Positions 2,166 through 63,247 of a stretch of 64,000 nt of DNA are shown in pieces. Below the pieces are notes generated by a model. That model saw nothing but the letters and a program-made list of their open reading frames with translations. It made no database searches and was not told the origin of the DNA. Source of the stretch: an uncultured Gammaproteobacteria bacterium. Its GTDB lineage: Bacteria > Patescibacteriota > Microgenomatia > UBA12405. The translations under genes and the position numbers were made by a program. How positions within the stretch are numbered: the first letter of the stretch is position 1; each line of letters begins with the position of its first letter. The stretch lies in NCBI GenBank assembly GCA_964463925.1, contig CAYXDV010000003.1:19455-83454 (forward strand). Reading direction: 5' to 3'.

Positions 2166-5100
2166 TTATAAAGATAAAGTTTGCTTTTTCCCAACCGGAA
2201 TAAGACGTCCGATAATAACATTTTCTTTTAGACCGATCAAGTGATCAACAGAACCGAGAAGTGAATTTTCGGTTAGGGTAGTTGTCGTTTGCTGGAAGGA
2301 AGCAGCAGACAGCCAGGATCCTGTAGTCAGTGATGATTGGATTAATCCCAACAAAGTCTTGGCGCCTTTGGCTGGTTTTTTACCTTCAGCTTTGGCTTTG
2401 TCGTTCTCTGTTTGATAAATTGAATTGGGTACCACCTGTCCATACATGAACAGAGTGTCGCCTGGGTCGGTGATACGAACTTTATTTGTCATCTCGCGAA
2501 CTAGGACTTCAAAATGTTTGTCGTGGATACCGATCCCTTGAGATTCATAAACACCTTGGACATTGTTGATCAGATATCTTTGAGCGGCCTGATGTCCAGA
2601 AACTTCTTTGATCTGCTTAACATCTAATGGTCCGGTAGTTAAGGGAGTTCCCTGGGCAACCAGATCACCATTAGAAACTAATAGAGTTACTGTAGGAGGT
2701 AACATGTAGGTAACTTTTTTAGCTTTACCTTCTTCATCTTTACCTTCAAGGATGACTTCGTAAGAATCAGGATTCTCTTTGACTTTGATTTTTCCACCGA
2801 TTTCAGCAATTGGGGATGGAGCCTTTGGGGTACGCATCTCTAAGAGTTCTTGCACACGTGGCAAACCCTGGGTCACGTCTAAGCCAACTACTCCTCCTGT
2901 ATGTTTGGTACGAAGTGTTAATTGAGTACCAGGTTCTCCAATAGATTGGGCAGCAATAACGCCTGCTGGAACTCCGATTTTGATTGTTCTTCTGGTCGAT
3001 GGATCCCAACCATAACATTTTTGACAAAGTCCATAGCGAGTATTGCAGGTTAGTGGAGAGCGAACTTCAACAGTGTTTATAGATTCGTTGGCTTCAATTT
3101 GGGAAACCAATGCATCGTCTAGAAGAGTATTGGCAGCAATAATTACGTTACCTTTGGCGTCTTCTAAATCTTTTGCTAAGTAACGTCCAATTAGACGTTT
3201 GCCAAATACTCGTTTACGATTTTCTTCATTACGATCAATGACTACGCCTGTGGTAGTTTTACAATCATTTTCGCGAATAATACAGGCATGAGTTGCATCG
3301 ACCAACTTTCTGGTTAAATAACCAGCATCTGCAGTCTTTAGGGCAGTATCGGCCAAACCTTTGCGGGCACCGCGGGCACCAGTAATATATTCAAAAGTTG
3401 ACAAACCTTCACGAAGACTTGATTTGGTTGGAAGTGGAACGATTTTACCCGTTGGATCTACCATCAAGCCACGCATACCTGAAAGTTGTTTGATTTGGTC
3501 TTTAGAAGCGCGTTTAATACCAGCGCTAGCAATTAAACGAATTGGAGAATCAGAATCCAAAGTAGCCCAAGTTTTGTCAGCGATAACATCAGTAATATCG
3601 AGCCATACTTGGTTGCTTAATCTGGTTTTTTCTCCTAGTGAGATTAATCCCATATTAAAGCTTTCTTCGATTTCAGAAACTTTTAATTCAGCTTCCTTAA
3701 TAAGCTTTGCCTTTTCTGGTAAGAAGCCACAATCTTCCATAGCCAAGGAAATACCGGACATAGTAGTTCCGATAAAACCTAGGTTTTTTAGGGCATCTAA
3801 TAGTTTTACTGTTGCTTTGCGTCCAAGTTTTGACAAGCAATTTAGCGCCAGTTCTTTGGTTTGTTTACCACCAACAACCGGTTCATTGATAAAATTTAAT
3901 CCTTTTGGCAAAACTGAGTTGAAGAGTAAACGTCCATAGGTTGTCCTTACAATTTTGTGATCTATATAGACATTAATCAATTGACGTAATTCTATTTTTC
4001 CAGATTGATAGGCTAAAACTGCTTCATCAGAGCTACCGAAAAGCGAGAGGTCATTGTCAGTAACAGACTCCATTTTGGACTGGTCTTCTTGCCTAATAGA
4101 GGTGATGTAATACAAACCAATGGCCATTTCTTTTGAAGGCAAGGCAACAGGCGAACCATCAGATGGCTTTAACAAGTTGCGACTTGGCAACATGAAGCGA
4201 CGAGCTTCTCGCCTTGATGCCTCTGATAAAGGTAAATGAACACCCATTTGATCACCGTCAAAGTCTGCATTAAAACCCTCACAAACACCGGGGTGAAGCC
4301 TGATGGCCAGACCGTCAACCAAAACCGGCTTAAAAGCAAGGATTGATAATTTATGTAGTGTTGGAGCACGGTTTAAGAGTACATAACTATTTTTGGTTAC
4401 AAGATCCAACATATCGTAAACTTCCTTAGCTTTGTTATCGATTAGATTTTTGGCACTTTTAATGTTGGCAGCAATCCCGCTTTCCATAAGCTCGTGGAGC
4501 AAAAATGGACGATAAATTTCCATGGCAATTTCTTTTGGTAAGCCAACCTGGTTGAGTTTTAGTTCGGGTCCGACAACGATAGCGCTACGACCAGAATAGT
4601 CTACACGCTTACCAAGTAAGTTACGACGAAAACGACCCTTTTTACCCTTAAGCATGTCAGACAGAGATCTGGGGGTACGCTTTAAAGTTTTGCGTCGATT
4701 CTTCATGGTTTTAGTAGAATCGATTAACATGTCAACTACTTCTTGAAGCATTCGCTTCTCGTTGCGCAAAATAATTTCTGGAGCTCCAAGCTTTACTAAT
4801 TTCTTCAAACGGTTGTTTCGATTGATTACTCGCCTGTAAAGATCATTTAGATCTGAAGTGGCAAAACGACCGCCAGTTAATTGGACCATAGGTCGCAAAT
4901 CAGCTGGGATAACAGGCACTACATTCATGACCATCCACTCTGGTTTAATGCCTGCTTCAGACATTCCTTTTAGTACACGTAATTTATACATTAATTTGCG
5001 CTTCTTCAAACGAGAGCTAGTTTTTTCAACATCTTTTTTCAATTGTTCAATTGTGGCTCCAATATTAATATTGGACAGTACTTTGTAAACAGCCTGAGCA

Positions 5101-30851: not shown

Positions 30852-31718
30852 TTAATTAGTAGGAGTTGGATTGGGTTTGGAAGGGCTAGAAGATTCCTTG
30901 GCTTCTACTGCCTGAATCGGAGTAGTATCAGCAGGGGTTTGTTCCATGCCAAGCTGACTTGCTCGCAAACAAATTCCAGCAGCTTCAAAAGATTCTGGGC
31001 TAATATTGATAGAAAACCCTTGAGTAGCCACGCGCAGAGCTACTAACAAATTTTTACTTGGATCTATCTCTAGTTCATACCCAAGCATGGGTATTAAGAA
31101 AGAAAAGATTTCAGAAAACGGTGCTTCGGGATCGAAGATAGTATAGGCATATGTGTTTTCACTCTGTACTGGAGTAACCAAGGCTACTGGCGAAGCCTGG
31201 AGAACAATAGATTTTTCACCTAAAGCAGTAGGATCACCCAATAAGATGGTTAAATCGAAACTGGGACCATTTTGATTTTGAATGCTAATTTTTTCTGTCT
31301 CAACTTTGGGAGATCCAGATTTAGTTTGAACAACTAGATTTAGTTTTCCACCATCATCGTTGTAGCTAACCTTTTCGATTTGATCTAATGGGAAGTCAAC
31401 ACTGATAGTTAGATCTTTGGCAATAGTACTGGTGTCGGTTAGGAGATCCATGCCCGCTAATTTACTGTAATTGGCATCTGGTGTTTGTGGACAATAAACG
31501 GCAACTTGCTTGTTGGCTTTCTTCAAAGTCATGCCAAGAGCAAGGGCAGAAGCAATACCATCAACTGACAGATTTGGCACAACAATTTGTATGTTTTGTG
31601 CCTGTTGTAGGGCTATTTTTAGATCAGAAACGTTATAGTTTTTCATAGTTGACTCCTGCTTTTTAGCAACTATTGGGGTTGGATTAATTAAATTTCCCCT
31701 GGTATTGCCCATATGCAA
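30852..31718 (-). CDS. DHH-family-like (NrnA-position) protein with degenerate catalytic motifs
   Basis: IQIVVPNLSVDGIASALALGMTLKKANKQVAVYCP resembles the DHH motif-I region (H.nPDGDalGS.lal) but lacks the His/Asp residues. Sits where rbfA/nrnA-like genes follow infB. Confidence 0.4.
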   Translation of the reverse strand: MHMGNTRGNLINPTPIVAKKQESTMKNYNVSDLKIALQQAQNIQIVVPNLSVDGIASALALGMTLKKANKQVAVYCPQTPDANYSKLAGMDLLTDTSTIAKDLTISVDFPLDQIEKVSYNDDGGKLNLVVQTKSGSPKVETEKISIQNQNGPSFDLTILLGDPTALGEKSIVLQASPVALVTPVQSENTYAYTIFDPEAPFSEIFSFLIPMLGYELEIDPSKNLLVALRVATQGFSINISPESFEAAGICLRASQLGMEQTPADTTPIQAVEAKESSSPSKPNPTPTN

Positions 31719-33218: not shown

Positions 33219-34217
33219 TTAGGCAGCCTGACCTACTACCTTGATCTCAAAGCCACCCACTAATTCGCCTGCAAGGCGAACGTTGCTTCCTTCAGAACCA
33301 ATGGCCAGGGCTAGTTGATCTTCTGGAACGGTAACTAGAGCAGTTTTGGCTTCTTTGTTGATTTCGGTCACCTGTACATCGCGAGCAGGAGAAAGGGCCT
33401 GAGCAATAAATTGACTTAGATTTTTAGCAAATAAAATCACGTCTATTTTTTCGTGGGAAGGTAGTTCGTTTAAAATGGCCTGAATCCTGGCACCTTTTTG
33501 GCCGATACAGGAACCGACTGGATCAATGTTTCCTTGACTGGTACTAACTGCCACCTTGGTCCTATCTCCGGCAGATCTAGAAATTTTTTCAATTTTGACT
33601 GTTTTGTTACCAACCTCAGGAACTTCCCGCAAAAATAATTGGCGAATAAACTCCGGATCCTTGCGAGATAAAAGAACTTCTTTTTTACCGTTTGGATCTT
33701 CGCTAACACCTTTGACTAAGAACATTTTGCGCGTACCTACGGCAAGGTTTTCACCTCGGATTTGCTCATCTTTGGGACAAATTCCTTCAGTTTGGTTTAG
33801 ACTGACAACTAATTTATAAGGATCACTTTTAATGACAGTGCCAGAAACCAAGGATCCTGTTTTTCGAATAAAATCGCCTAAAATAGTATCTCTTTCGGCT
33901 TCATTGATACGCTGGTTGATAACTTGCATAGCGGTTTGGGCAGCAATTCGGCCAAAACCAGGAGGAGTAACATCTGTTTTTTTATCAGGGTTAGTTGTGT
34001 CAAAAACATGAAAAGATCCAGAATCAGCGTCTAAATCAACGATAAAAGTTGAATCTTGTGAAACTTCAATGTTCTTCTCTTTTTGATCACGTTTATAGGC
34101 GGCAATTAAGCCGTCTTCGATAGAATCTAAGATTAGTTGTGCATCAATTTTCCGCTCACCAGCAATTTGGGCGATGGCCGCAGAAAATTCTGTTTTTGGT
34201 AACTTTTTTAGATCCAT
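33219..34217 (-). CDS. nusA: Transcription termination/antitermination factor NusA
   Basis: N-terminal NusA domain, S1 and two KH domains (...GSCIGQKGARIQAI...); 332 aa. Confidence 0.92.
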   Translation of the reverse strand: MDLKKLPKTEFSAAIAQIAGERKIDAQLILDSIEDGLIAAYKRDQKEKNIEVSQDSTFIVDLDADSGSFHVFDTTNPDKKTDVTPPGFGRIAAQTAMQVINQRINEAERDTILGDFIRKTGSLVSGTVIKSDPYKLVVSLNQTEGICPKDEQIRGENLAVGTRKMFLVKGVSEDPNGKKEVLLSRKDPEFIRQLFLREVPEVGNKTVKIEKISRSAGDRTKVAVSTSQGNIDPVGSCIGQKGARIQAILNELPSHEKIDVILFAKNLSQFIAQALSPARDVQVTEINKEAKTALVTVPEDQLALAIGSEGSNVRLAGELVGGFEIKVVGQAA

Positions 34218-34252
34218 AGATTGATGATTATATCAGAAAAATCTGCTATTCA

Positions 34253-34630
34253 CTATATTTTTGGATCGATTATTTGGTGTTTTTTTCTGAATTTTACAAA
34301 CAGAAGACCAAGTAAGTAGCCAAGTAAACCAAAATGGACAGAAAAATATTGGATTTTGTCGTCATTAAATTGTTGGTTTACTGAATCTAAATTCTTGCCA
34401 TTTATAGATAATTTTGGCTGGTTAAAACTGGTTGAAATGTCTAGGATTTTTCCATCAGGAAGCTGAACTTGGGTGTGAGGGGCAAAAAAACCTTTTTGGA
34501 CAGAGGGCTGCTTTTTCTCATTGATAAATACTTCGTAATATTTGCCTTTGAAAAAATGATAGGACTGATATAGATCTATTTTAGTACCGTCTGGAAGAGT
34601 AAGTTGTTGGGGAGTTTTGGAGGGAAACAT
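34253..34630 (-). CDS. Hypothetical protein with a C-terminal TM anchor (125 aa)
   Basis: Soluble N-part then LLGYLLGLLFV hydrophobic tail; occupies the position where rimP usually precedes nusA but has no RimP similarity. Confidence 0.45.
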   Translation of the reverse strand: MFPSKTPQQLTLPDGTKIDLYQSYHFFKGKYYEVFINEKKQPSVQKGFFAPHTQVQLPDGKILDISTSFNQPKLSINGKNLDSVNQQFNDDKIQYFSVHFGLLGYLLGLLFVKFRKKHQIIDPKI

Positions 34631-34638
34631 TATTTATT

Positions 34639-35559
34639 TTACTCTACATCATCACCGCTATCTTCGGCGCCTAGGCGGTCGTTGCCAAATAAAATTTCTT
34701 CTGAAAATCCAGAATTTTTCCAGTAAGTTTCAGCTCCTTCTGATGTCATTTTCCTAAAGTTAATAATTGAGCTAAAAGCACTTTGCATAGCTTCGGGCGT
34801 TATCCGGGAAACATCTTGATATGAATCTCTGTCTTTTGATGCATCAACCGGTATTCCATACTGACTGCATAATGTATGCCATATTTCTTTCAAATCACCA
34901 GTGAAATTATTCGGATGAGTATATCCTTCTGATATTTTCCAACCATATCTATTTTCTGCTTTGATTTTGACGCATCTTATTTTAGAACCAAATTCTTTCA
35001 GTAATTCTGACTCGTAATGTCGTCCAATTCTTTTCTTAGTTTTGCTCAAAAATTTTTCAGCTGAAATTGCTCCGGCAGCAAAGGCTATAATATCGGCTAT
35101 TTGGTTTTCGGCCCCACGACGACGTGTATGTTCACCAGTATCTTTGAGCTTTGGATTATCTACACTGACAGATTGAGCCCAAGCACGGAGAGCTAGGCAA
35201 CGAGGCAACTGGCGAATGCTTATCTCTGGCTGCCATTCGTCATCCATAGCAATGGCCAAAGCCGGGCCGCGATCCAAATAGGCTCCACTCTTATCTGTTC
35301 TATCTTTGGTCAAAACTCGAAGTTGGCCAGCTTTTAATCTTTGTTGATTGTCTGGTTGTTGGAGTTTTTCAAAATCAATGCCAGCTGCAGCCAGCTCAAT
35401 TCTAAGATATCCTTTGAGCTCTTCTGTCCTTTCTGTGGTTAATGTGGCCACAGCGTTAGGATCAACTAAGTCACGAAAAAAAGCATTGATAAAACCTACT
35501 CTATCATGTTCCACTCTTGCTTCTGGTTTTTCAACAAATTGTTCTAGTTTTCCTGTCAT
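34639..35559 (-). CDS. Hypothetical cytoplasmic protein (306 aa), second gene of an atypical-composition two-gene cassette
   Basis: No TM or signal peptide. Codon usage is richer in CGT/GGC/GCC/CCG codons than neighbouring genes, with local GC about 45-47%. Short segments (KSGAYLD...AIAMDDE; KKRIGRHYESE) are only faintly reminiscent of nucleotidyltransferase or HEPN-type motifs. Confidence 0.55.
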   Translation of the reverse strand: MTGKLEQFVEKPEARVEHDRVGFINAFFRDLVDPNAVATLTTERTEELKGYLRIELAAAGIDFEKLQQPDNQQRLKAGQLRVLTKDRTDKSGAYLDRGPALAIAMDDEWQPEISIRQLPRCLALRAWAQSVSVDNPKLKDTGEHTRRRGAENQIADIIAFAAGAISAEKFLSKTKKRIGRHYESELLKEFGSKIRCVKIKAENRYGWKISEGYTHPNNFTGDLKEIWHTLCSQYGIPVDASKDRDSYQDVSRITPEAMQSAFSSIINFRKMTSEGAETYWKNSGFSEEILFGNDRLGAEDSGDDVE

Positions 35560-35589
35560 ATGTTTATATAAGTTAATTTCGCGAATTTA

Positions 35590-36117
35590 TTAACCTTCCT
35601 GATCAGCTATTATTCTTGGTAAGATACTTACTCTTTCTACATCTGCTGTAAGTTGTGGATCACGACGAATGTTCTGGAATGCCCTACCCAAACGCACCGA
35701 GTTATACAAGTCTGATTCCTGCGCACTGGCAGCAAAGACAAGATTGAATCTTCTTGCATATTCGTCAGGTTTAATTTGACTAGCTGCTAATTCGGCTGTA
35801 CTAAGTAAAAGATCTAAGAGCACTGAATCGGGAGAGGCATTTGGTTTATCAGAAGGGATGATATGGGCTAGAAGCCTGTCAAAAACGTTTGTGGGGCAGA
35901 TGTCGGCTAAGACCTGCATATCGCCGGCTACACCTTGTCTCTTTGACGTATGTGGAACTTGGCTTAAGTCTATGCCCTGTTGTCGCCATAGTATTGTAAA
36001 ACCTTCTTTAAGAGCTCTGGCATTTTTAGGTCGCATTGACTTAGGAAGATTAGGATCGCAGATGGTGTTAAAAATTTGCTGTGATCCTTGTAAGGCTCGG
36101 TCATATTTATTTGTCAT
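35590..36117 (-). CDS. Hypothetical cytoplasmic protein (175 aa), first gene of the two-gene cassette
   Basis: Complete ORF, same strand, 30-nt gap to the downstream partner; no recognisable motif. Confidence 0.55.
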   Translation of the reverse strand: MTNKYDRALQGSQQIFNTICDPNLPKSMRPKNARALKEGFTILWRQQGIDLSQVPHTSKRQGVAGDMQVLADICPTNVFDRLLAHIIPSDKPNASPDSVLLDLLLSTAELAASQIKPDEYARRFNLVFAASAQESDLYNSVRLGRAFQNIRRDPQLTADVERVSILPRIIADQEG

Positions 36118-36175
36118 ATGTTTATATTATAGTTCTATTTTAGGATTTGTAAATGCCTATTTCTTTGGCTACAGT

Positions 36176-36561
36176 TTAGTCAATGTTAGTAGTAAAGTAA
36201 TTAGGTATTTGTGACGGCAAAATCCATCTAGCTTCACTAATTTCTGGATCCTGAATATTTATCTCACCACCTTGATATTGGCATTTAAAATAGCTTATCT
36301 GTACGGCAAACTGCGGATGTTGTTTACTGACTATAAGTTTTTCTACAGTGACTGTGCAGCCGCTTTCTTCAGCTACTTCTCGAATGACTGCTTCGACCAG
36401 GGGCTCTCGGTGTTTGGCACTACCGCCCGGATAGACCCAAGTTAATGTAGACCCATCACTCCCCGATTCCTGTTTACTACGTAAAACTATTAGCACTTGG
36501 CCTTGGGAATTTAGGACAACTCCTAGACAATTTGTTTTATTTCCGAATTAGTTGTGTCCAT
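36176..36561 (-). CDS. NUDIX hydrolase; the 5' end is probably frameshifted, or the gene uses a non-ATG start
   Basis: NUDIX box PGGSAKHREPLVEAVIREVAEESGCTV. The in-frame upstream peptide ...NKTNCLGVVLNSQGQVLIVLRS looks like the first NUDIX beta-strands but is cut off by an in-frame TAA. An ATG (about 36561) lies in another frame, and an A-run (ggaaataaaacaaa) sits at the junction. Confidence 0.7.
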
Positions 36562-36567
36562 TTTGAA

Positions 36568-37422
36568 TTATATATCTAGCTTTTCGAGAGCCGATTTGGT
36601 TTCACGAGAAATAGAAGTTGGGATAGTAACCAATAGACGAATATACATATCCCCTTTGCGCTTGGAGCGCACATCTGGGATACCTTCACCCCTGACTCGA
36701 ACCATAGTATTTGGTTGAGTGCCGGCTTTGACTTTTAGTTTTAGTGGCTTGCTTAGAGTAGGAACTTCGATAGTGTCACCTAAAATGGCTTGTTTTATGG
36801 TTATTTCATGGTTTATATACAAATCATTGCCATCTCGTTGGAAGATTTTGTCTGGTAAAACATCGATGTATAAAATAAAATCTTCAAAACGAATTTGTTG
36901 CCCGTCAGAGATACCTGCTGGAATTTTTATTTGTCGTTTCTTTCCATCTAAATTAACTTCTTTTTCTACACCCCTGGCGGCATCCATAAAGCTAATTTGG
37001 ATTTTGTAGCGAGGTAAGCTGCGACTAGATGAACCAGAAAAACCACCACCAAAAAATTGTTCAAAAATATCAAAAGGATTGCTAAAACCGCCAAAATCGA
37101 AATCTGCACCAAATGGATTTTCGCCGCCGCTTGACCAAGAATAAGTAAATGGCCCCTGCTGGTTGGTATAAGTATGTCCACCAAAACCACCGGAAGCCCC
37201 ATCAAAAGCTGCGTGTCCAAATTGGTCATAAGCCTGCTTTTTTTGAGAGTCGGAAAGAATTTCGTAGGCTTCGTTGATTTCTTTAAAATGTTCTTCAGCT
37301 CCCGCTTCTTTGTTGCGATCTGGGTGATATTTTAGGGCTAGTTTGCGATAGGCTGATTTGATTTCATCAGCAGATGATGTTTTGCCTATGCCTAAAATTT
37401 CGTAATAATCGCGCTTGGACAT
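36568..37422 (-). CDS. dnaJ: DnaJ-family co-chaperone (J domain + G/F region + C-terminal substrate-binding domains, no Zn-finger repeats; CbpA/type II-like)
   Basis: [34 protein letters not shown] domain, Gly/Phe-rich linker, CTD; follows dnaK. Confidence 0.85.
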
Positions 37423-37428
37423 AATAAA

Positions 37429-37707
37429 TTAAAGTTGTTTTTCTAGTTTTTTAATTTTTCTGAGACGAAAGAAATTGCCAACCCAACAGTACAAAGTATA
37501 AGCAGTGGCCATGATGGTTATCACCATATTTATATCGAAACTTGGAATATGTGTCTGCGGATTTCTAATTAACCAAATGCTACTAAAGTATCCCCAAATA
37601 GTTAATAGACCTATCGCGAAAGGAAATACGGCTATAGAATTTAGAAAATGAATAATTACATCTAGCCTGAGCTGTTGGATTTGAAATTCAAGATTTTTGT
37701 TTTTCAT
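37429..37707 (-). CDS. Small two-TM membrane protein, hypothetical
   Basis: 92 aa with two hydrophobic segments; lies between dnaK and dnaJ. Confidence 0.4.
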   Translation of the reverse strand: MKNKNLEFQIQQLRLDVIIHFLNSIAVFPFAIGLLTIWGYFSSIWLIRNPQTHIPSFDINMVITIMATAYTLYCWVGNFFRLRKIKKLEKQL

Positions 37708-37718
37708 AATTTATTTTA

Positions 37719-37742
37719 AGAGACGCGCGGGTGCGCGTCTCT
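37719..37742. terminator. Perfect GC-rich hairpin AGAGACGCGC-GGGT-GCGCGTCTCT between dnaK and the downstream small ORF; candidate partial terminator or mRNA-stability stem-loop
   Basis: 10-bp perfect stem with a 4-nt loop seen directly. There is no strong U-tract on the minus-strand side, so termination efficiency is uncertain. Confidence 0.4.
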
Positions 37743-60689: not shown

Positions 60690-61976
60690 CTACAGTATGA
60701 GTAGAACTCCTAGGAGGGTAAGTATGCCACCAGTAATAGTAACTCCCCTGAGTGGCAGGTCGAAACCCGTTTTTGGTAATAGAATATGGGTTGGTGTCGG
60801 AGTAGTTGAACAACAGTAACCACTGGAATTATGGCTGGCACATGATTGTTGGAGCTCAGATAGGCCACAACGGGAAGATCCAGAGTCTGTTTTGATACAG
60901 ACCAGACCATCTTTGCAAATTTTATTAGGCTGATCACAACCTATTTGTCCACAAGAAAGGTGAGTGGTTTGGGGAGTGGGAGGCAGCTGACAGCAATAAG
61001 AAGAAGAATTATGGGAAGAGCAATAATCTTTGGCTTCTGAGGTAGCACAGCGATAAACACCAGAGGTAGTTTGTACGCAAGACAAACCATCTCGGCATGC
61101 CATATTTGCCTGATTACAACCAGCCTGACCGCAGGATAAATATGTGGTTTCAGGTATGTAAGTTGGAATAGGTGTAGAAGTTAGTATGGGCGTTGGGGTA
61201 GATGTTGGCATTGGAGTAGATGTGGGAACTGAAGTTGGAATAGGTGTAGCTGTTGGGACTGGGGTAGAGGTAGGAGTCAAAGTTGGCGTTGGGATCCTGG
61301 TTGGTATTGGGGTATTTGGAATACTCGTTGGCGTGGGGGTTGGAGCTGTGATCTTAGTTGGAATTGGAGTGTTTGGAATACTGGTAACACCGGTGCTTGT
61401 ACCGGCACAATTATTGTTAATCACATAATTTTGACTTGAAGCGCCGCATTGGGACTCTGGCTGCCCAGGAGGACAGGCATCAATTTGACCGCAGGTTACA
61501 GATTTTACGCTACTACACGGAACAGGAAGGCCACATTTTGTACATTGGCCATTAACCCAACCACCTTGACTACAGTCACAAACTTTACAATTCCAAGTTG
61601 CTGCATTCGGGTTGGCTACTGGGCTTGAAGGATTATAGGTAGAAGATGGATCTGGCGCTGGAGTAACTTGACCAGAGCCAGTATTGCCGTCATCACAAGT
61701 TTTTAAAGAAGAATTGTAAGTTTTGCCTGGAGGACAAGTAACGCCCTGTGCAGGACAGTTAGTAGCACCACCGTTGATATCAGTTTCTACTCCATTGCAT
61801 CTAACACGATAACAACCACCGTTTGCAGGACAGGCAGCAGCACACTCGCAACCTTCATATTGGGCAAAGTTTCGCAGGTCCTGCTCTTGTCGTAATAAAA
61901 AGACACCGGCAGCAACTGATAGTACTAAAAAAAACAAAGTGAGACCTTGCAAGAGATGTTGTCTTAGATAGTGCAT
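60690..61976 (-). CDS. Secreted Cys-rich, Pro/Thr-rich surface protein with a C-terminal LPKTG sorting-signal-like motif
   Basis: Signal peptide, N-terminal Cys-rich region, a long PT linker (TPIPT repeats), two duplicated roughly 60-aa Cys modules (LSCGQAGCNQANMACRDGLSCVQTTSGVYRC... / LSCGQIGCDQPNKICKDGLVCIKTDSGSSRC...), and a terminal LPKTG followed by a hydrophobic tail. Confidence 0.7.
   Translation of the reverse strand: MHYLRQHLLQGLTLFFLVLSVAAGVFLLRQEQDLRNFAQYEGCECAAACPANGGCYRVRCNGVETDINGGATNCPAQGVTCPPGKTYNSSLKTCDDGNTGSGQVTPAPDPSSTYNPSSPVANPNAATWNCKVCDCSQGGWVNGQCTKCGLPVPCSSVKSVTCGQIDACPPGQPESQCGASSQNYVINNNCAGTSTGVTSIPNTPIPTKITAPTPTPTSIPNTPIPTRIPTPTLTPTSTPVPTATPIPTSVPTSTPMPTSTPTPILTSTPIPTYIPETTYLSCGQAGCNQANMACRDGLSCVQTTSGVYRCATSEAKDYCSSHNSSSYCCQLPPTPQTTHLSCGQIGCDQPNKICKDGLVCIKTDSGSSRCGLSELQQSCASHNSSGYCCSTTPTPTHILLPKTGFDLPLRGVTITGGILTLLGVLLIL
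61180..61420. repeat. Imperfect tandem DNA repeats encoding the Pro/Thr-rich linker (TPIPT/TSIPN units)
   Basis: Repeated GGTATTTGGAATACT / GTGTTTGGAATACT-like units on the plus strand; the artefactual antisense ORF 61186..61428 is made of (GV)n. Confidence 0.5.
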
Positions 61977-62002: not shown

Positions 62003-63247
62003 CTAATGTTGCAAGAATATGCTAGTTCCTGCTAATAAAAGACCAACTAAAATCAGGACTCCTGTTGGCCCCACAAAACCTGTTGTCGGTAATTTTGTAG
62101 GTCTTGGAGTTGGGGTAGAAATAATATTGGTAGGTGTTGCTGTCGGGGCAAGTGTTGGTTCTGGTGTTGGAATAAAAATTGTTGGCACCAATGTTGGAGC
62201 TGAAGTAGCCGATGGAGTACTTATAAAGGCTAGGCCAGAATTCGTGGTATTGACGGTAAAATTTCTGGATAAAGTGTTTGATCCTTGTTGGACTTTTAAC
62301 ACATAAGACCCAATTATCAGCGACTGAGACGGAGCCCAACGCCATGAGCCGGTAGAACTAATTTGAGTACTGGAAGTGCTAGATATAGGGCCACTAAGCG
62401 AGATGGATAGAGTGCTTGAGCTAGGGCCACTGCCAAAAAATTCTGGGATGGTTGGTGGCAAGACTTCCCCCTGGCTTGGATAGGAAATTAGCAATGAGCT
62501 ACTAGCGGATCCTGTTTGGCCTGAACTAAGATTTGATTGTTGTAAATTAAGACCGTTGACGGAAGAATATTTTGGTAATGTAAAGTTGTCTTGACCCAAG
62601 ATAATATCCGGAACTGGTAAATTATTGTCTGTGGTATTGTCTAGATTGAGATCCTGTCCAGTAGAAGTAACTACTTGTATGGATTCAGTACTTTGACTTG
62701 GCGACGGACTGTTTACAAGTGCATTTGGGATATTCCAAGAACCTTGTGTAGTTGTTAGCGCTGATAATAGTTGTGAATTGGGCAAAGTTATATATATTAG
62801 AGTATTGGGAGATGGTGACTGATCTTGGTTAAGTACTTTACCCCAGGCAAAAGAGGCACCTTCGCCAGATGCAATGACTGAATTTGTAGTAGTTATTTGA
62901 GATTGTGTTGCTTGTGTTTGTCCGGAGATGATTAAAGATATTGGATAAGTTTGTCCGCCAGTTAGTCCATTGATCTTAAAATAATGTATTTTAGAGTTGG
63001 TTGATGTATTTAAAAAGGCATTGTTATTAACTTGAAGAGAAATATCGCAATCTTTGTCAGTTGCAAAAGAGACATCGGCAGAATTTGCTGTTATATTTGA
63101 GGTTTTTATTGAATTTGGCAGACATGATGCTGATGCCTGCGTACGTATGTTAGTAGTATAGTGAGAAGTTAGAGCACCACCAAAAAGAGCGGTTATTGAT
63201 AAAAATACTAAACCAAGAATTGTTGGTATTCGAAATTCTTTTTTCAT
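62003..63247 (-). CDS. Secreted surface protein with a C-terminal LPTTG sorting-signal-like motif and a PT-rich stalk
   Basis: Signal peptide (ILGLVFLSITALFGGA); Ser/Thr/Asn-rich beta-type body; ...PTATPTNIISTPTPRPTKLPTTGFVGPTGVLILVGLLLAGTSIFLQH. Confidence 0.65.
   Translation of the reverse strand: MKKEFRIPTILGLVFLSITALFGGALTSHYTTNIRTQASASCLPNSIKTSNITANSADVSFATDKDCDISLQVNNNAFLNTSTNSKIHYFKINGLTGGQTYPISLIISGQTQATQSQITTTNSVIASGEGASFAWGKVLNQDQSPSPNTLIYITLPNSQLLSALTTTQGSWNIPNALVNSPSPSQSTESIQVVTSTGQDLNLDNTTDNNLPVPDIILGQDNFTLPKYSSVNGLNLQQSNLSSGQTGSASSSLLISYPSQGEVLPPTIPEFFGSGPSSSTLSISLSGPISSTSSTQISSTGSWRWAPSQSLIIGSYVLKVQQGSNTLSRNFTVNTTNSGLAFISTPSATSAPTLVPTIFIPTPEPTLAPTATPTNIISTPTPRPTKLPTTGFVGPTGVLILVGLLLAGTSIFLQH

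Follow-up and report, generated by a model that had tools for sequence, protein, structure and literature searches.

What fills the gap between dnaJ and nusA in a genome whose relatives mostly leave hardly any gap there, and did it arrive from elsewhere? The question is raised by two open reading frames (ORFs) of 175 and 306 aa, referred to below as p175 and p306, in a 64,000-nt stretch of contig CAYXDV010000003.1, the whole of which was analysed and is called the window. Along the direction of transcription, the order of genes is hrcA, grpE, dnaK, a 92-aa ORF, dnaJ, a NUDIX hydrolase gene, p175, p306, a 125-aa ORF (p125), nusA and infB. A preliminary description of the locus had placed the pair between dnaJ/NUDIX and nusA-infB as two co-oriented ORFs spaced by 30 nt, and this layout proved correct in coordinates, strand and neighbours: Pfam matches identify NUDIX and dnaJ upstream, nusA and infB lie downstream, and the spacer is exactly 30 nt long (35560-35589). 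Both ORFs are also, as described, real, cytoplasmic-looking genes without an assigned role. The same description had regarded them as an inserted cassette of atypical, GC-rich composition, suggested to be of horizontal origin and perhaps encoding a toxin-antitoxin or abortive-infection module.

The answer obtained here is different. The p306 protein is the local representative of a small and very fast-diverging protein family, designated X, which is seen only in Candidatus Shapirobacteria, and p175 is probably a degenerate tandem paralogue of it. As an overall explanation, we consider it an even bet that the locus consists of a dnaJ-adjacent, fast-evolving family X gene together with a decayed duplicate, with a guessed role as an accessory of the DnaK/DnaJ chaperones.

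A fast-diverging family in the dnaJ-nusA slot

The junction was compared among 47 loci of relatives, anchored on NusA and represented by one genome per species, with NusA identities to the window of 58-77%. (L-numbers such as L001 and L002 denote loci or contigs of relatives, and P-numbers such as P0003 and P0004 denote members of family X.) The named relatives among these loci are Candidatus Shapirobacteria or related Microgenomates (Patescibacteria), and the window genome itself belongs to Candidatus Shapirobacteria, within the Patescibacteria or candidate phyla radiation (CPR). In approximately 30 of the 47 loci, nusA directly follows dnaJ with a gap of only 53-123 nt. The junction is therefore normally compact, as had been stated, and p175 and p306 are indeed extra relative to that of most relatives. 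A minority of loci hold inserts of 0.4-3.1 kb with varied content, namely, family X, an unrelated family Y, Ham1-like, Macro-domain and DUF559 proteins, and a NUDIX gene (L031).

Relatives of p306 are few. A word-indexed search of 5.8 billion proteins returned a single near-identical one, and a phmmer search of 1.84 billion cluster representatives returned 11 matches with E values from 7e-131 to 2e-4, most of which, outside the sister strain, are 26-38% identical to p306. Profile re-searching added only P0013 and P0014. Genome contigs searched with p306 and metagenome contigs searched with alignment A4 and p306 gave no match, and no relatives of X were found in viral contigs. However small, the family has a fixed address. 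A hidden Markov model (HMM) of the family finds further members in L003 (6879-7523) and L042 (9414-9908), exactly within the dnaJ-nusA gap, and every member with recoverable context (L050-L054, L059, L060, L066, L069, L003, L042, the window and L001) lies after dnaJ, and before nusA wherever the contig reaches that far. The distance from the dnaJ stop codon to the start of X is -1 to 40 nt in nine loci, the window itself having NUDIX and p175 in between, and that from the end of X to nusA is 29-148 nt. In a NusA tree, the lineages with X branch deeply on either side of the midpoint root, and X is missing from the large crown clade, in which nusA adjoins dnaJ. Family X thus fills the same slot in deep lineages of Shapirobacteria, in 12 or more independent loci, and is a positional orthologue that has a long history in the group and was lost repeatedly; the 306-aa gene is not a stray insertion. 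NUDIX, p175 and p125, by contrast, are lineage specific.

The alignments of X (A1 and A2) fall into four parts, the first of which is a conserved N-terminal helical block. The core reads 'aWAqsES..lPKLk...sSRrRG.eQ..anTiAfAsGAI....Y....WR.G..yE'; the third part is a K/E-rich linker followed by '..YGIP..', and some members end in a C-terminal 'LLGND' plus acidic tail. The proteins range from 164 to 306 aa, lack a signal peptide and transmembrane (TM) segments, and are predicted, by models of low confidence, to be mainly helical; the isoelectric point of p306 is 5.9. How fast the family diverges can be seen from genomes whose NusA is 73-78% identical to that of the window and whose X is only approximately 18-27% identical to p306.

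The cassette formed by p175 and p306 is unrelated to any described family. No meaningful match to p306 was found in Pfam, NCBIfam, PADLOC, PHROGs or PDB sequences. Against Pfam, NCBIfam and PADLOC, p175, p306 and p125 gave nothing but chance-level rows (E 0.095-0.17), far below curated cut-offs; PHROGs, searched with p306, p175 and 13 members of the family, gave no significant match, and profile searches of PDB sequences with alignments A1, A4 and the core-only A5 were equally empty. The earlier statement that neither protein shows a recognised motif is thus confirmed for p175 and p306 in Pfam, NCBIfam and PADLOC, and the faint nucleotidyltransferase-like hints ('SG...DDE' and 'R-x3-H') that had been read into p306 received no support in any profile search.

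Composition of the cassette

The proposal of horizontal acquisition had been argued from composition, with a local GC content of 45-47% against 30-40% in the flanking genes and a preference for GC-rich codons. These figures were not reproduced. The GC content of the whole cassette is 40.7% (p175, 42.4%; p306, 40.4%), and that of the flanks is 41.2% in nusA, 40.0% in dnaJ and 41.5% in dnaK. At third codon positions (GC3), p175 has 0.324 and p306 has 0.277, compared with 0.305 +/- 0.031 on average in 51 window ORFs, and the four codons that had been named, CGT, GGC, GCC and CCG, make up 7.3% of the cassette codons compared with 6.2 +/- 1.9% per gene. Only one stretch of approximately 300 nt within p306 (35069-35368) reaches 47.7% GC. 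It encodes the end of the N-terminal region, the variable linker and most of the conserved core of X, and because its GC content is high at first (GC1, 0.64) and second (GC2, 0.45) codon positions and ordinary at third positions (only 0.34), it reflects an Ala/Gly/Arg-rich protein segment and not foreign codon usage. Thus, neither p175 nor p306 shows the deviant composition or codon usage of a horizontal island when measured against the 51 window ORFs, and acquisition cannot be argued on this ground.

p175 as a probable tandem duplicate

The upstream gene has a single homologue (99% identity) among 5.8 billion proteins. Several independent comparisons, each of them weak on its own, connect it with its neighbour. 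By blastp, p175 matches p306 over the N-terminal block with an E value of 0.003, and its best non-self matches among the junction ORFs are members of X; by hhalign, it is collinear with family X over 120 columns (E 3e-4, with a probability of only 39%). Against an X HMM built without the window proteins, it scores 12.0 bits, the maximum of 5000 shuffles being 11.6. It aligns end to end with short members of X, but without the 'WA..ES...SRRRG' segment. Taken together, p175 is probably a degenerate tandem paralogue of X that has lost the core motif.

The duplication, if this is what it was, is framed by a direct repeat. The 16-nt sequence ATATAAACATATGACA stands at the start codons of both genes and has only these two occurrences in the 64 kb, even when two mismatches are allowed. 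No integrase-like ORF was found in the interval, in which this pair bracketing p175 is the only flanking repeat. An independent JGI contig (L002, 99.9% identical) carries both ORFs intact, as does the window. Across genomes, the two genes do not co-occur as a pair: X stands without a p175-like partner in L003, L042, L050-L054, L060, L066 and L069, and the p306 orthologue of L001 is also without p175.

Expression signals

Most window genes lack a Shine-Dalgarno sequence, and many carry a -10-like hexamer (TATACT, TACAAT, TATAAT) 6-13 nt before the ATG; examples are found upstream of 13163, 19304, 22301, 24473, 27389, 34217 and 49180. This suggests that leaderless or near-leaderless mRNAs are widespread in this CPR genome. 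A promoter-like element with an 11/12 consensus match ends shortly before the p175 start codon (Table 1), and its position suggests a near-leaderless p175-p306 transcript, possibly extending into p125. Judging from such consensus matches, the lineage of the window may transcribe its duplicated X genes independently. In the other lineages, the gap between dnaJ and X is too short for a promoter, which implies co-transcription and probably translational coupling. No CIRCE/HrcA operator, and no Rfam family or tRNA, was found in the window.

Decay and divergence in a sister contig

The closest view of the evolution of this module is offered by L001, whose DnaK and DnaJ are 97% identical in amino acid sequence to those of the window. 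L001 lacks exactly the p175 unit, and the deletion junction lies inside the 16-nt repeat. Its p306 orthologue (2907-3830) carries an in-frame TAG at codon 55, its NUDIX gene is reduced to fragments, and the 92-aa ORF between dnaK and dnaJ is also missing. The deletion of p175, the decay of NUDIX and the stop codon in p306 show that the module is dispensable, and eroding, in that lineage. By contrast with the other relatives, L001 does contain a homologue of p125 (86.6% amino acid identity over 119 aligned residues by tblastn), and it is the only locus to do so; the suggestion that p125 belongs with p306 is thus borne out by their joint presence in L001 and the absence of p125 elsewhere.

Between the window and L001, the ratio of nonsynonymous to synonymous substitution rates (dN/dS) is 0.014 for dnaK (dS 0.76), 0.016 for dnaJ (dS 0.70), 0.145 for p125 (dS 0.51) and 0.35 for p306 (dS 0.165). 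The p306 gene is therefore under constraint, but loosely, and the ratios of p306 and p125 mark real genes. Within codons 181-240, nonsynonymous differences exceed synonymous ones by 7 to 1. The dS of p306 is low throughout the gene, approximately 3-4 times below the values for dnaJ and dnaK (Fisher p about 3e-11); in the centre of p306, 96-98% of nucleotides are identical, compared with approximately 89% in the flanks. Recent allelic exchange, a chimeric short-read contig and an unusual constraint on synonymous sites are possible explanations.

A possible history and its alternatives

Within the explanation preferred here, the window lineage probably received a NUDIX gene after dnaJ. Family X was probably duplicated, with the upstream copy, p175, degenerating and losing the core motif, and the pair probably gained its own promoter-like element, followed by the small tail-anchored ORF p125. 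As for function, X would be soluble and cytoplasmic and would assist or modulate the DnaK/DnaJ chaperones, a proposal derived from operon position alone, to which we assign clearly less than an even chance. The DnaJ in question consists of a J domain, a G/F region and a C-terminal domain, and it is without a zinc-finger region and without cysteine, an architecture that is also found in relatives. A more specific version, in which X is a CPR-specific partner or regulator of zinc-finger-less DnaJ, perhaps built on a catalytically decayed lysozyme-like scaffold, is a doubtful one.

Several observations weigh against this explanation as a whole or in part. The functional proposal depends on gene order only, and the order is imperfect in the window itself, where NUDIX and what seems to be a promoter of its own separate X from dnaJ. 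X cannot be a required partner, since most of the Shapirobacteria considered here do without it although they all share one type of DnaJ. No similarity in sequence or structure to CbpM, GrpE or co-chaperones was found, DafA not having been compared directly, and in a Pfam scan of 15 family members at E <= 5 no family recurs, CbpM (MerR-like) included. There is no residue that is invariant across all members of X, and single-sequence AlphaFold2 models of p306 and p175 reached a confidence score (pLDDT) of only 37 and 50, respectively, and are unusable. The homology of p175 to X is statistically weak, as the values given above indicate. Frequent loss of X, the relaxed dN/dS of p306 and the nonsense mutation in L001 all fit a low-constraint or dispensable protein. 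Finally, the identities of X and NusA are uncorrelated (rho 0.25, p 0.2), which leaves purely vertical descent unproven and makes an exchange of cassettes possible.

This last point leads to the alternative that survives best. The dnaJ-nusA junction might be an exchangeable cassette site, at which homologous recombination in the conserved dnaJ and nusA flanks swaps variable accessory genes, X alleles among them, from lineage to lineage and has replaced p306 laterally. The low dS of p306 and its raised central identity relative to L001 would be expected under such a history, as would the lack of correlation with NusA; moreover, X of the window is closer to that of L052 and L066 than to that of the nearest genomes, L003 and L060, and the same slot holds unrelated genes elsewhere (family Y, Ham1, Macro, DUF559 and NUDIX). 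However, composition and GC3 are native, proteins as divergent and gappy as these yield no reliable trees for comparison of X with NusA, and heterogeneity of rates alone could explain the incongruence. In addition, the short Logan contig L001 might be a chimera, assembled from strains that live together. Lateral replacement of the p306 allele is thus somewhat unlikely as the account of this locus, although some lateral exchange at this slot is plausible in view of the low dS rather than of composition. It should be noted that such exchange concerns the history and not the function of X, and is compatible with the explanation preferred here.

It is less probable that one or both ORFs are non-functional relics, p175 being a pseudogenised duplicate and p306 on its way out. 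The state of p175, without core motif, with a single near-identical homologue and cleanly deleted in L001, would agree with this, and so would the relaxed dN/dS of p306, its excess of nonsynonymous differences in codons 181-240, its premature stop in L001 and the loss of X from most lineages. Against these observations stand the intactness of both ORFs in the window and in L002, a dN/dS of p306 that is well below 1, and the fact that X has retained both its location and its conserved blocks in lineages sharing only 55-60% NusA identity.

A third alternative concerns the fold. X might be a diverged lysozyme-like domain derived from the GH23/SLT group of lytic transglycosylases (LTs), active where a Glu-Ser pair is kept, inactive in p306, and acting on or binding fragments of peptidoglycan. 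The resemblance begins with the core, where 'ES..LPKLK....SSR.RGLMQIMANT' parallels 'ESAWNPKVKSPVGASGLMQIMPGTA' of E. coli Slt70 (checked against 1QSA), so that several members of X share the collinear motif ES-x3-P-x-(V/L)-K ... GLMQ(I/L)(M/L)..T. Residues 99-132 of P0004 match Pfam SLT (PF01464) with an E value of 0.011, but at 15.7 bits the match falls below the gathering score of 21.3 bits, and one such match among 15 scanned proteins is not significant, p306 and 13 others having none. Comparison by hhalign of family X with Slt70 and five E. coli LT domains aligns the core block with P values of 6e-4 to 0.014, but only approximately 30 columns are covered and the probabilities are 3-29%. 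An E. coli SLT HMM ranks members of X 2nd, 4th and 10th among 2595 ORFs, with scores that do not exceed 6.8 bits, and the helical structure predicted for X would also suit an LT. Family consensus sequences, however, have no SLT match, and neither full nor core-only profiles retrieve an SLT structure from the PDB even at E 10. The catalytic Glu is present in approximately 9 of 14 members and is replaced by V in p306, A in P0007, Q in P0010 and L in P0011; p306 has S-V-S at the E-S motif and GAENQ in place of GLMQ, and if the LT reading were true, p306 itself would be non-catalytic. No AYNxG block is aligned, the likeness lies below every curated threshold, and X has neither an export signal nor a TM segment. 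An LT origin of X therefore seems quite improbable.

X could also belong functionally to the nusA-infB operon, as an accessory of ribosome maturation or of transcription-translation in the place of rimP. The canonical arrangement in most bacteria is rimP-nusA-infB; none of these loci shows a rimP ahead of nusA, and X is always directly upstream of nusA. Yet none of 15 members matches RimP (RimP_N or DUF150_C) even at E 5, and p175 and p125 have no such Pfam match either. X is predicted, with low confidence, to be mainly helical, compared with the alpha/beta plus Sm-like structure of RimP; the gap that separates it from dnaJ is narrower than that before nusA, which is preceded by an extended -10-like box of its own; and most Shapirobacteria do without X. 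Membership in this operon is thus very unlikely.

A horizontally acquired toxin-antitoxin or abortive-infection/defence module, as suggested in the preliminary description, would accord with two small, adjacent, co-oriented and quickly diverging genes behind a promoter-like site, and with the loss of the upstream gene and the nonsense mutation of the downstream gene in L001, for which loss of an antitoxin could in principle select, but it is hardly credible given that PADLOC, Pfam, NCBIfam and PHROGs returned no toxin, antitoxin or defence match, that the two proteins look like paralogues and not like toxin and antidote, that X is solo and tightly coupled to dnaJ in at least 11 other loci, that the surroundings contain no integrase, tRNA or other trace of a mobile element, and that composition is native and viral relatives were not found.

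Features of the locus and neighbouring genes

The features of the locus are listed in Table 1.

Table 1. Features between nusA and dnaJ in the window.
Feature	Position	Strand	Remarks
nusA	33219-34217	minus	Flank; preceded by extended -10-like box TGATATAAT at 34227-34235
p125 (125 aa, basic)	34253-34630	minus	C-terminal hydrophobic tail, residues 96-114
p306 (306 aa)	34639-35559	minus	ORF; family X member of the window
Local GC-rich patch in p306	35069-35368	minus	Codons 64-163; 47.7% GC
Direct repeat, copy 1 (16 nt, exact)	35554-35569		Spans p306 start codon; minus strand reads ATATAAACATATGACA
p175 (175 aa)	35590-36117	minus	ORF; probable degenerate tandem paralogue of p306, without conserved core motif
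Direct repeat, copy 2 (16 nt, exact)	36112-36127		Spans p175 start codon; 558 nt from copy 1
Promoter-like element TTTACA-16-TATAAT	36126-36153	minus	11/12 consensus match; ends 8 nt before p175 ATG
NUDIX hydrolase ORF (106 aa, GTG start)	36176-36496	minus	Pfam PF00293, E 2e-10
dnaJ	36568-37422	minus	Pfam DnaJ and DnaJ_C

The NUDIX ORF of the window may be truncated at the N-terminus, as its Pfam match starts at model position 20; the Nudix box looks intact. At this position, NUDIX is absent from the other X-bearing loci, apart from the fragments in L001. Genes related to nucleotide house-cleaning or ADP-ribose recur at the junction in relatives (L008, 7642-8250; L003, 9288-9803; L037, 9382-9810; L031, 332-895), and these Ham1, Macro and NUDIX genes, together with a DUF559 endonuclease-like gene, parallel the NUDIX ORF of the window. 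In another clade of Shapirobacteria, the slot between dnaJ and nusA is taken by family Y (L006, 9273-9848; L008, 8362-8946; L021, 7277-7807), which is characterised by a K/E-rich N-terminus, a '...PHN...' block and FLMTV at the C-terminus and is without a Pfam match. Family Y is unrelated to X (hhalign P 0.6-0.9).

The neighbouring junction appears to be of the same kind. The 92-aa ORF between dnaK and dnaJ (37429-37707, minus strand) has a strongly hydrophobic N-terminal segment with at least one predicted TM segment; at this place, L042 and L043 encode weak homologues (33-37% identity), L050 a 142-aa ORF that is unrelated, and L069 five small ORFs. This varied content marks the dnaK-dnaJ junction as a second variable hotspot. 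A strong, GC-rich hairpin with a 10-bp stem, AGAGACGCGCGGGTGCGCGTCTCT, is located just after dnaK (37719-37742). Thus, both the dnaJ-nusA and dnaK-dnaJ junctions are hotspots for small accessory genes, such as NUDIX, Ham1, Macro, DUF559, X and Y, which is of use in the annotation and comparison of CPR genomes.

Two further observations concern genes outside this interval. A 288-aa ORF right after infB (30852-31718, minus strand) is found at the same position in essentially all related loci with 46-63% identity; it has only a weak match to the DHH family (E 0.014) and sits roughly where rbfA is located in the canonical nusA operon. Two adjacent ORFs on the minus strand, 60690-61976 (428 aa) and 62003-63247 (414 aa), have GC2 values of 0.59 and 0.51, respectively, with normal GC3, which implies a strongly biased amino acid composition.

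Comparison with known systems

Type II toxin-antitoxin systems resemble the window locus in having two small, adjacent, co-oriented genes with a promoter-like element. However, X has no toxin or antitoxin domain and usually stands alone in a housekeeping cluster, and the locus offers no evidence for a new defence or toxin system. The comparison with the modulators of J-proteins is one of operon position. CPR bacteria, or Patescibacteria, have small genomes in which approximately half of the genes have no assigned function. With its fixed position adjoining dnaJ and a sequence that is nearly unrecognisable from one lineage to the next, X provides a testable handle on lineage-specific chaperone or gene-expression biology in this group.

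The gene cbpM is encoded directly downstream of its J-protein gene, and dafA, which encodes a protein of approximately 78 aa, is located within the dnaK operon next to dnaJ. CbpM is a small, lineage-restricted, cytoplasmic protein of gamma-proteobacteria that regulates the zinc-finger-less J-protein CbpA (PMC4063869), and DafA, a lineage-specific protein of Thermus thermophilus, assembles with DnaK and a zinc-finger-less DnaJ into a DnaK3-DnaJ3-DafA3 complex (PMC3727329). X differs from CbpM in being 2-3 times larger, in showing no sequence similarity to it and in being absent from most relatives with the same DnaJ, and DafA is likewise much smaller than X. Nevertheless, a gene directly downstream of a zinc-finger-less dnaJ, the arrangement that would be expected of such a modulator, is what is found in the nine loci in which X closely follows dnaJ, NUDIX and p175 being interposed in the window. 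By operon position, X is thus analogous to DafA in placement and concept, and, like CbpM, it is encoded directly after a zinc-finger-less J-protein gene. If the proposed role were true, X would be the third independently evolved J-protein modulator encoded behind its J-protein gene, after CbpM and DafA, and its extreme divergence and repeated loss would reflect a lineage-specific tuning of proteostasis in ultra-small symbionts.

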